The notes under the pieces are model-generated. The model saw nothing but the letters and a program-made list of their open reading frames with translations. It made no database searches and was not told the origin of the DNA. 64,000 nt of DNA from Candidatus Latescibacterota bacterium (GTDB lineage: Bacteria; Latescibacterota; UBA2968; UBA8231), in assembly GCA_965200315.1 (NCBI GenBank), contig OZ241362.1, forward strand, positions 2,240,001-2,304,000, read 5' to 3'. This document shows, one piece after another, positions 37,360-39,148 of this stretch; position 1 is the first letter of the stretch; the number at the start of each line of letters is the position of its first letter. Made by a program: the position numbers and the translations under genes.

Positions 37360-39069
37360 TCAGTAGGTGCGCTCTTGGGGCTGCCAGCGGGTAATGACGA
37401 CGTCTTGGTATTCGATGCGTGGCTCGCCATCGGTGCGATAGGCCAAGGAGTGACAGAGGAAATTTTCATCGTCGCGCTCTTCGTAGTCCATGCGCGAATG
37501 CGATCCGCGCGACTCCCGGCGCAAAAGTGCCGAATGAGCCACGGTCTCGGCCACGTCGAGCAGCGAGCCCAGTTCCAAAGCGGCCGTTAGTTCGGTGTTG
37601 AAGACCGATGAGCTGTCGTCAACCTGAACGCGAGTGTAGCGCTCCTTGAGCTTGGGCAACTCGGCGCAGGTCGCCTCTAGGCTCTCCTGTTCGCGGTAGA
37701 TGCCCGCCCCTTGCTCCATCGTCTTCTGCAGATCCGTGCGAATGTCGGCGATGCGCTCGCTGCCTTCGTTTTTGAAAAACGCCTGTTCAATCCGCTGCCA
37801 CTCGTCAGCAGCCATCTTCTTCAGGCTATCGTACGACGGTGAATTGACCTCGGCGGCATACTCGGCGGCATAGCGGCCGGCCCGCGCACCGAAAACCAAA
37901 AGCTCGGACAGCGAGTTGGAGCCGAGGCGATTGGCTCCGTTGATGGTGACACAGGCCGTTTCCCCGGCCGCGTACAAGCCCGGAATCGGCGTCGCCGTAG
38001 TAATGTCGGTGTGAATGCCGCCCATCATGTAGTGGACCACCGGGCGCACGGGCACCGGCTCGTACACGGGATCAATGCCCACGTAGTTTTTGGTCAACTC
38101 GCGTACGAAGGGGATGCGCTCGTCGATTTTCTTTTCGCCCAAGTGCCGCAAATCGAGATGGACGTACGTGCCGTACGGGCCGGAAAAGACCCGCCCGGCG
38201 CGCTCCTCGTGGACGAATGCCCGCGAAACCATGTCGCGCGGGCCTAATTCCATCTTGTCGGGCAGGTATTCGCTGAGGTAGCGGTCGCCTTTGTTGTTGA
38301 TCAAGTAGCCGCCCTCGCCGCGCGATGCCTCGGTCATCAAGATGCCCGTGCCCGGCAGCCCGGTGGGATGGTACTGGACAAACTCCATGTCCTTGAGTGG
38401 GCAACCCGCTCGGTAGGCCATGGACATGCCGTCGCCGGTCTTGATGGCGGCGTTGGTCGTAAAGGGGAAAATGCGCCCGCCGCCGCCCGTGCAGATGATT
38501 ACGGCCTTGGCGGGAATCGCCTGCATGGCACCTGAGCGCACGTTGATCGCTGCCACGCCACAGGCCGCGCCGTTGTCGTCGAGCAGCAACCGAGTGCCAA
38601 ACCACTCGTCGTAGCGATGGATGCGGTCGTATTTGAGCGAGGTCTGGAAAAGGGCGTGTAGCATGTGGAAGCCGGTTTTGTCGGCCGCGTACAGGGTGCG
38701 CTTGACCGACATGCCCCCGAAGGCGCGCACACTGATCCGGCCGTCGTCGTCGCGGCTCCAAGGGCAGCCCCAATGCTCCAATTGAATCAGCTCGTCTCTG
38801 GCCTCCTCGACGAAGACCTCGACTACGTCTTGGTCGGCGAGAAAATCGCTGCCCTTGATGGTGTCGAAGGCATGGGAGTCGAAGCTGTCGTCGTCGCGTA
38901 GCACCGCCGCGGAGCCGCCTTCGGCTGACACCGTGTGACTGCGCATGGGGTACACTTTGGACACCAAGCCGACGCTGAGATTCGGATCGATCTCGACAGC
39001 AGCAATCGCCGCCCGCAGCCCCGCACCACCGCCGCCTACGATTAGTATGTCGTGGTTAGGTATATTCAC
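37360..39069 (-). CDS. frdA: Fumarate reductase/succinate dehydrogenase flavoprotein
   Basis: [45 protein letters not shown] start. Confidence 0.93.
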
Positions 39070-39148
39070 GTTTCAATCCACACCCCCGCACGGGGGCGAC
39101 CTTTTTGGTGGGGGAGGTTTCAATTCGCGCCCCCGCACAGGGGGCGAT
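39070..39148 (-). CRISPR. Orphan mini-array: two type I-C-like repeats with a 16-nt spacer
   Basis: Minus strand ATCGCCCCCTGTGCGGGGGCGCGAATTGAAAC (39148-39117) and GTCGCCCCCGTGCGGGGGTGTGGATTGAAAC (39100-39070); hairpin plus ATTGAAAC tail; no cas genes in the window. Confidence 0.65.

Follow-up and report, generated by a model that had tools for sequence, protein, structure and literature searches.

The fumarate reductase operon frdABCD of a sponge-associated member of the Latescibacterota begins directly after two orphan CRISPR repeats of type I-C. The operon lies in the window analyzed here, a 64-kb stretch which corresponds to positions 2240001-2304000 of the source genome (G000), a metagenome-assembled genome (MAG) of 5.36 Mb; five-digit coordinates of the frd locus refer to this window. 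The genes of the locus are all read from the minus strand. The gene frdA (37360..39069) encodes the fumarate reductase flavoprotein subunit of 569 amino acids (aa) with a GTG start, and it matches model NF006686 with 869.6 bits (cut-off 854). It is followed by frdB for the iron-sulfur subunit (36601..37359; NF009051, 352 bits) and by a frdC/D region, which extends to about 35841; here the FrdD model NF003977 matches the end of an open reading frame (ORF) at 35841..36749. An ankyrin-repeat gene on the same strand (39257..40234; Pfam Ank_2 and Ank) precedes the operon, with its stop 108 nucleotides (nt) before the distal repeat. The annotated frdA start is sound because an in-frame TGA is present two codons upstream of the GTG and because outgroup genomes have ATG at the homologous codon; therefore the proximal repeat truly abuts the start codon.

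Two type I-C repeats in front of frdA

The proximal repeat R1 (GTCGCCCCCGTGCGGGGGTGTGGATTGAAAC, 31 nt) occupies positions 39100..39070 on the minus strand and ends next to the start codon of frdA (GTG, 39069..39067). The distal repeat R2 (ATCGCCCCCTGTGCGGGGGCGCGAATTGAAAC, 32 nt) lies upstream of it on the same strand at 39148..39117. Between the two is a C-rich linker of 16 nt (CTCCCCCACCAAAAAG, 39116..39101, minus strand), which takes the position of a spacer and is too short for a spacer of type I-C. Four substitutions and a single indel of 1 nt separate R1 from R2 in our alignment. A preliminary description of this stretch had proposed a pair of diverged 31-32-nt repeats, 16 nt apart, in sense orientation on the frd strand and with the last repeat base touching the GTG; all of these features were borne out.

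R1 can be divided into a 2-nt 5' overhang (GU), a 7-bp stem (CGCCCCC and GGGGGUG) with a 4-nt loop (GUGC) and an 11-nt tail (UGGAUUGAAAC), which abuts the GTG. The corresponding parts of R2 are AU, CGCCCCC, UGUGC, GGGGGCG and CGAAUUGAAAC, that is a 7-bp stem with a loop of 5 nt. The local hairpins have energies of -13.7 kcal/mol (R1) and -15.2 kcal/mol (R2), and a long helix between R2 and R1 is an equally good fold. The sole strong run resembling a Shine-Dalgarno (SD) sequence, GGGGGUG, is in the 3' arm of the R1 hairpin, as had been noted before. In published type I-C repeats, a 2-nt overhang at the 5' end leads into a stem of 7 bp, the loop measures about 5 nt and the 3' tail 11 nt (PMC8524198). 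The frd repeats are like these Cas5c substrates in their sequence family, in overhang and stem, in a loop of 4-5 nt and in an 11-nt tail ending ATTGAAAC. The recognition trinucleotide of BhaCas5c is U-G-G directly after the cut site (PMC8524198). R1 keeps UGG at this position; R2, whose tail starts with CGA, has lost it, and R1 of the relative G009 has CGG. A cut at the base of the R1 hairpin would leave a tail of 11 nt before the GUG, as the preliminary description had predicted; the cut site is taken from the literature (PMC8524198).

We used a covariance model of the repeat family, which was built solely from one array repeat each of the relatives G004, G008, G009 and G022. This model matched R1 with 42.7 bits (E 2.1e-10) and R2 with 39.3 bits (E 2.5e-9); these are its sole matches in the window, and no match occurred at the two repeat-free frd loci that were searched with it. 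Real arrays of the R1/R2-type repeat, with a period of about 66 nt, are found in sister genomes. A first repeat pattern has 120 matches in G004 and 40 in G009, while a second, looser pattern, run with G004 and G009 left out, has 55 in G008 and 96 in G022. The same four genomes carry canonical Cas5c genes (183-190 bits), and in G004 and G009 the array is located downstream of cas1-cas2. Judged by sequence and repeat architecture, R1 and R2 are type I-C CRISPR repeats, in agreement with the I-C-like identity suggested earlier. A search with Rfam returned CRISPR-DR9 with 20.4 and 19.5 bits, which is under the gathering score of 45, and it returned nothing at three other orphan loci. The frd element does not make up a full array: it has two repeats instead of at least three and a 16-nt linker in the place of spacers of about 33-35 nt, and there is no array leader with adjoining cas genes, the window being free of Cas1 and Cas5 matches. 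The earlier statement that the window contains no cas genes stands for these two families, which were the ones searched.

By chance, the window would be expected to contain 0.00 exact matches to R1. In a comparison without gaps over the 5.36 Mb of the genome, the two frd copies are the only sequences with up to 8 mismatches to R1 or R2, and two unrelated sites have 9. The possibility of a common repetitive extragenic palindromic (REP)-like element, which the preliminary description had raised against its own reading, is ruled out by the lack of further copies within this distance in G000. The sequencing runs that contain the frd stretch are sponge metagenomes. Contigs of run X5, which belongs to a second study, contain the stretch in identical form, and homologous mini-arrays occur at the same place in six other species; an assembly artefact, the other doubt voiced before, is therefore unlikely. 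In an RNA-labelled run (X4) a whole 5 kb is inside one contig of 9.8 kb with even depth, for which carry-over of DNA is possible. A contig of 1170 nt from run X3 spans 38474-39640 and hence reads across the mini-array.

Leader forms in the genus and their Cas background

We compared 31 genomes of the genus, which include the relatives G004, G008, G009, G013, G014, G020, G021, G022, G042 and G043, and read the frdA leader in 24 of them. The comparison of leaders, which the preliminary description had put forward as a check, revealed two forms. The mini-array leader is present in seven of the 31 genomes, namely G000 and six further species (G009, G013, G014, G020, G021 and G042), while 17 of the 24 leaders read are short and free of repeats. 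Both forms have in common a conserved block, which extends from the stop of the ankyrin-repeat gene to a T-run (GTTGCTCC.ATCGGCGATATGGTTTAATTTTT; 39206..39256, minus strand) and which may well be the promoter/operator region. They diverge right after this block, which ends TTTAATTTTT, and rejoin at the start codon, so that the whole leader is swapped. In the mini-array form the block is followed by a 57-nt segment (39149..39205, minus strand), which is found only at the frd locus of the seven carriers. Searching the 31 genomes with what the mini-array leader contains besides its repeats hit the same seven and otherwise gave one marginal match in G006 (E 9.9e-4); the 57-nt segment has no other copy in the 31 genomes that would point to its origin. 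By eye it faintly resembles the leader of a short array before cas3 in G022. AAAC follows the repeat at frdA in G013, G014 and G009, as it does after this G022 array, and the shared letters AAAC-AAAC-GT at the junction hint at a possible join by microhomology.

The repeat-free leader is probably the older form because its end resembles that of deeper branches. On the frdA tree (24 rows) the carriers are scattered; six changes are needed to explain the leader forms, and at least two of these are forced by well-supported branches. A tree in which the carriers are held together was rejected by the approximately unbiased (AU) test with p 0.0104, a value for a group that was named after the tree had been seen. 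As the leader forms conflict with the frdA tree, they must either have been moved by recombination or persist as an old polymorphism. The gene itself is 95-98% identical across most of the genus and intact in all seven carriers (96-98% where scored). The region from -1 to -30 is consequently the working initiation region of frdA in these species.

The hairpins of the element are conserved. R1 folds locally in all seven species and R2 in six, and the tail is unpaired in all of them, leaving 11-15 nt free before the start; the linker, in contrast, varies between 12 and 18 nt and also in sequence. We summed the changed sites over seven species pairs with in-frame codons, the pair G020-G021 included; the 14 pairs with exactly one of G009, G020 and G021 were dropped because codon indels had shifted the frame of their four-fold sites (n about 60). 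By our own addition of the per-pair rows, the changed sites number 16 of 217 in R1 and 18 of 208 in R2, compared to 241 of 1788 four-fold sites. Going by these counts, the repeats change somewhat more slowly than silent sites, which indicates mild constraint at best. The frd repeats of G009 are the most decayed, with the mutated tails ATTAAAAC and ATTGAGTC; this decay proves nothing, as G009 is also the most divergent lineage. Together, these data place the anatomy and the distribution of the element on solid ground.

The persistence of the element does not depend on Cas proteins. Five of the seven carriers have no match to the Cas5d family, no match to Csd2/Cas7c (0/5) and no array of the R1/R2-type repeat. 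One of them, G013, is a closed single contig, and the other four are 77-94% complete. The only carrier with a canonical Cas5c is G009. The search of G000 for a type I-C cas locus, likewise foreseen in the preliminary description, uncovered a divergent I-C-like locus, 1.49 Mb from frd and with a different repeat. The locus has the order cas5-cas8c-cas7-cas3-cas4-cas1c-cas2, lacks Cas6 and is joined to an array (G000:C1:3772071-3782179; stretch L007:9071-17062, array from L007:17243), which comprises 28 repeats of 37 nt (GTCTCCCC...GGGGGGAGCGGATTGAAAC). The tail of this 37-nt repeat, CGGAUUGAAAC, is one base off that of R1. Only Cas1c, Cas2, Cas4 and the HD domain of Cas3 pass the curated cut-offs. 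The Cas5 is divergent, with 43 bits against a cut-off of 85, and in HMMER alignments an Ala is aligned to the Lys of a K-H pair in solved Cas5d chains, a pair that was equated by eye with the published catalytic Lys-His. G000 has a type I-C system, but it is not the one to which R1 and R2 belong.

In all, G000 contains at least seven arrays. Four Cas1 matches (127554, 591261, 3778701 and 5359050) and one Cas5 match (3772163) are distributed over the genome outside the window. Two of the arrays, built of other repeat types, are very large (G000:C1:129082-147663 with 246 repeats and 592785-601219 with 110 repeats). Repeats of the R1/R2 type also occur singly or in small numbers next to cas genes of relatives. 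In G004 a lone repeat lies between the stop of cas1 and the start of cas2, 13 nt from the latter (stretch L078:13235-13265), and is absent from this place in G009. In G022 an array of three repeats reads directly into cas3 (...GGATTGAAACAAACAAACGTAAAAGGAGG; stretch L177 about 1365-1526).

Orphan repeats before other genes

Orphan I-C-type repeats are also present before other genes, both in G000 and in the genus, and all that were inspected read in sense toward the next gene. The fusion of such repeats to genes is hence recurrent in the genus, for the most part in genomes without the matching Cas proteins, which supports the more cautious of the earlier suggestions, namely that the frd element is a dispersed repeat derived from a CRISPR repeat. 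In G043 one repeat lies 5 nt before the start of an altronate/galactarate dehydratase gene, where a partial second repeat upstream completes a mini-array with a 9-nt linker, and another lies 16 nt before a pyridine-nucleotide oxidoreductase gene. The two sites have opposite orientation and are 1.8 kb apart (stretch L215:2039-2070, 2084-2103, 3896-3927). A proteasome-type subunit gene of G014 is preceded by a repeat at a distance of 7 nt, and a gene for a dehydrogenase of the E1/transketolase type in G008 by one at 17 nt (stretch L216:1282-1315). The repeat inserted in this E1 leader belongs to the 37-nt family and is preceded by a partial tail and a spacer-like stretch of 22 nt. It is present in G008 and decayed in G000, where the degenerate site is at G000:C1 about 4091095-4091133 (stretch L294 about 1439-1477); of the 25 genomes read, 23 have no insert there, with four partial matches left out.

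About nine orphan loci from two I-C-type repeat families were found in G000, at least eight of them besides frd. Copies of the 37-nt family abut the ATG of a PhyH-like gene and of an 81-aa ORF; others lie 16 nt before pdxS, 25 nt before a 251-aa ORF and 56 nt before the gene for a proteasomal AAA ATPase. A copy at 4318677 has no ORF downstream. The six copies of the 37-nt family are contained in stretches L320:775-790, L321:723-758, L322:1249-1283, L323:701-734, L324:686-724 and L325 about 1163-1178. A further lone I-C-type repeat (G000:C1:4166653-4166689; stretch L189:1594-1630) is part of a transcript-like unit at 4166560-4166930, which consists of a promoter (TTGACA...TATAGG), the repeat, the motif GAGGAG, a 51-aa ORF with many amino-acid changes between species and a terminator. 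At the spot before the SD sequence, nine of 22 genomes carry the repeat and 13 an unrelated small hairpin (GCGCTTTTAAGAGCGC; four partial matches left out). Rfam gave no match on two sister copies of this unit.

At three of eight G000 orphan loci (frdA, the PhyH-like gene and the 81-aa ORF) the start codon follows at distance 0, compared to 1.19% of 20,000 random positions. The eight loci include frd and leave out the E1 site, and nine matches with 2 mismatches and no recognisable repeat body were dropped. The distance-0 count was used instead of a measure of 60 nt to the next ORF, which is uninformative because 43% of random positions satisfy it. A further scan with loose criteria (tail plus hairpin, 2 mismatches) yielded 214 matches, most of them due to chance, and was left unused.

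Possible roles of the frd leader

The explanation that we favour, with a probability of roughly 0.55, is that a fossil fragment of a type I-C array was taken over as leader and initiation region of frdA and acts in cis. The element, two end-type repeats with the stump of a spacer, would be the remnant of an array which displaced most of the native 5' leader of frdABCD in an ancestor within the genus. It would now be transcribed as frd leader, from a start upstream of the repeats, and would work in cis without Cas proteins. The GGGGGUG of the 3' hairpin arm, which is one G-U wobble off GGAGGUG, the complement of the 16S tail, may serve as the SD sequence, with the A/U-rich tail UGGAUUGAAAC as an unpaired spacer to the GUG. 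The two GC hairpins, or alternatively the one long R2:R1 helix, would set the structure of the leader. By hiding the SD sequence, the hairpin may gate translation. Exact abutment on the start codon is what selection for a workable distance between SD sequence and start would leave.

SD sequences are in use in this organism. Its 16S end reads CACCTCCTT, a peak of G is seen at -12 to -8 before starts, and SD-like words precede 35% of crude starts, the value for a control window being 12%. The hairpin's 3' arm in the 37-nt family reads GGGGAG. The 11-nt tail would then set the shortest possible start distance. This would account for the lack of an extra base between repeat and start at loci that rely on the repeat for their SD sequence, and for the SD sequences of their own at loci with a gap of 14-25 nt (the small ORF of the 4166653 unit, pdxS and the 251-aa ORF).

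Several observations weigh against an initiation role in cis. With 11-13 nt, the distance of the SD-like run to the GUG is long, and the run is base-paired within the hairpin, so the leader could lower translation instead of supporting it. The repeat-free leader is likewise without a good SD sequence, and frdA may not need one. A scan with the sigma-70 consensus found 0 promoters and the transcription start was not located; transcript ends and expression levels are unreadable from the RNA-labelled runs, as these, like all four runs, are in the form of contigs. The binomial P of about 1e-4 (our own arithmetic) for the distance-0 starts is indicative only, the eight loci having been chosen by eye. 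Cas5 is present in G000 and G009 and may act on the leader. Finally, the repeats are modestly constrained and often have indels, and a merely tolerated relic fits these data nearly as well.

Such a neutral relic has a lower, though still appreciable, probability. The fragment would have arrived by illegitimate recombination and be tolerated, with frdA translated despite it. Repeat substitution rates that are not far under those of silent sites, the common indels and the drift of the linker length are in line with this explanation, as is the fact that a repeat-free leader works in most genomes read; in addition, ectopic repeat copies are reported to be gained and lost dynamically (Shmakov et al., PMC10120712). 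Against a relic stand the excess of start codons at distance 0, the sense orientation of all inspected orphan loci toward the next gene (with the copy at 4318677 lacking one), a hairpin of R1 kept in every carrier species and the persistence of both leader forms across species against the frdA tree. Control by Cas5c is rather unlikely. Here a cognate or cross-reacting Cas5, wherever one is made, would cut the frd leader on the 3' side at the base of the R1 hairpin, remove the SD arm and leave an 11-nt handle before the GUG, and Cas5/Cas7 may stay on the handle and the first codons; as a result, fumarate respiration would depend on what state the CRISPR system is in. None of the features named for Cas5c substrates is missing from R1, UGG included (PMC8524198). 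G000 has the Cas6-less I-C-like operon with a repeat tail almost identical to that of R1, and at least five orphan copies of this system's own repeat stand before host genes. Real loci with an array reading into cas3 and a lone repeat before cas2 suggest furthermore that repeats in mRNA leaders are native to these systems. All this has to be set against the absence of Cas5c and Cas7c from five of the seven carriers, the low score of the G000 Cas5 and its Ala for the Lys of the K-H pair, the loss of UGG in R2 and the mutation of both tails in G009, the one genome among the seven that has a canonical Cas5c. Control by Cas5d as a general or conserved function, which the preliminary description had entertained, is not upheld because most carriers lack Cas5c and Cas7c and because the G000 locus is divergent and has another repeat.

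Two further explanations have much lower probabilities. A decoy of the RNA anti-CRISPR (Racr) type, or an element of the other strand such as an intrinsic terminator or a REP-like hairpin with a stabilising effect on the message upstream, is very improbable. On the plus strand both repeats of G000 are terminator-like (39083-39096 and 39128-39146; two found compared to a shuffle mean of 0.5), several orphan repeats of the genus lie between genes of the same strand, and the I-C pattern is single-copy in 60 of 73 stretches of viral contigs. Yet the frd element is at a syntenic chromosomal site between the ankyrin-repeat gene and frdA and not on a mobile element, no convergent plus-strand gene ends at the repeats, and the T-run after R2 is not kept in other species. 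On the minus strand neither hairpin is followed by a U-tract. Racr hosts, moreover, mostly have the matching subtype (82.9%, PMC10651486), which five of the seven carriers lack. The least probable explanation, and one that we hardly credit, is a regulatory mini-array of the CreA/CreR/crlRNA kind, in which an RNA of R2, linker and R1 would give a short guide with which Cascade represses a promoter. Two units 16 nt apart fit the definition of 15-60 bp, and such guides may have short effective spacers (PMC10120712). Against it stand the distance of 1.49 Mb to the only I-C-like cas locus, the variation of the linker in length and sequence between species and the lack of an effector in five carriers. 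A search in G000, the one genome used for it, found no match of the linker elsewhere with up to 1 mismatch; with up to 3 mismatches there are 99 sites, the linker itself included, of which 2 carry a TTC protospacer adjacent motif (PAM), which is about chance. A role as regulatory guide or anti-CRISPR, the other option named earlier, is consequently unsupported: the linker varies in length and has no target in G000.

Compared to known systems, the frd element fits none of the mini-arrays, Racrs or orphan arrays as they are described; it is joined to the beginning of a respiratory operon and retained in the absence of its effector. It differs from type I-C arrays in having two copies 16 nt apart instead of about 34, in lacking an array leader and nearby cas genes, in its location at the start codon within an mRNA leader and in the absence of the cognate Cas5c from most of its carriers. 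With CreA/CreR/crlRNA mini-arrays it shares two repeat-like units, a short spacer-like stretch and conservation among relatives (PMC10120712; 10.1101/2024.12.27.630466). Those are located within cas loci or next to them, depend on Cascade and have a match to a promoter, whereas the frd element is remote from the I-C-like cas genes, has a drifting linker with no target in G000 and persists without an effector. For intergenic regions that are not part of cas loci, a depletion of repeat-like sequences is reported (Shmakov et al. 2023, PMC10120712). Like orphan CRISPR arrays, the element is a remain of CRISPR that outlives cas genes; in the available text those arrays are discussed as guides, for example with anti-cas spacers, and not as mRNA leaders (PMC8616872), while the frd remnant is attached to the start of a housekeeping gene and has counterparts at several others.

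Orphan repeats and mini-arrays have so far been known as guides, decoys or debris near cas genes or on mobile elements. The frd element is a repeat fragment that forms the leader and initiation region of a core respiratory operon, is kept in several species without matching Cas proteins, segregates against a repeat-free leader and has siblings in front of other housekeeping genes. In the literature that was searched we found no account of CRISPR repeats that serve housekeeping genes as leader or initiation region, supplements being outside this scope; that of PMC10120712 may list ectopic repeats. If the role in cis is true, CRISPR arrays would be a source of ready-made expression signals for host genes. 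In those species that have kept a system, Cas-dependent processing, if true, would link CRISPR-Cas directly to metabolism at the post-transcriptional level. Engineered Cas6/Csy4 repeat hairpins have reportedly been placed in 5' UTRs (untranslated regions) by Qi et al. in 2012. If Cas5 cuts the frd element, it would resemble these in having a repeat hairpin just before the coding region, the difference being that they are synthetic constructs (PMC4604432). As a speculative extension, which we think unlikely as it stands, the repeats may be portable leader modules of hairpin, SD-like G-run and 11-nt spacer, which were captured repeatedly and which the matching Cas5 or Cascade, where present, would cut or coat. 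In the genus such units stand before frdA, the gene for the E1-type dehydrogenase, pdxS, the proteasome genes and the PhyH-like gene, which would be the genes that captured them. If it were true, for example for the 37-nt family of G000, Cas activity would tune metabolism post-transcriptionally, in a natural counterpart of Csy4 insulators.

For annotation it follows that lone repeats before start codons should not by default be taken as arrays or anti-CRISPR RNAs. The frd element is like Racrs and other solitary repeat units in that lone repeat copies are found outside arrays and transcribed with a neighbour gene (PMC10651486); RacrIC1, for instance, lies 11 nt after acrIC5 in one RNA (Camara-Wilpert et al. 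2023, PMC10651486). Racrs are, however, located on viruses or plasmids and act on the matching Cas proteins of the host (PMC10651486), while the frd element is chromosomal, stands before a respiratory operon and occurs mostly in hosts without a matching system. The flanks of the frd site, the ankyrin-repeat gene and frdA, are the same with and without repeats, which speaks against a virus, provirus or plasmid; this comparison of flanks was made without a prophage finder. Among viral contigs of IMG/VR, the type I-C repeat pattern occurs in the 73 stretches L217-L289. For 57 of the 60 single copies the position relative to ORFs could be tested: an ORF open to the end of the stretch starts within 25 nt in 10 of them, by a test which misses short ORFs. 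Several of the single viral copies, for the counting of which this ORF test is too crude, are 0-25 nt before an ATG.

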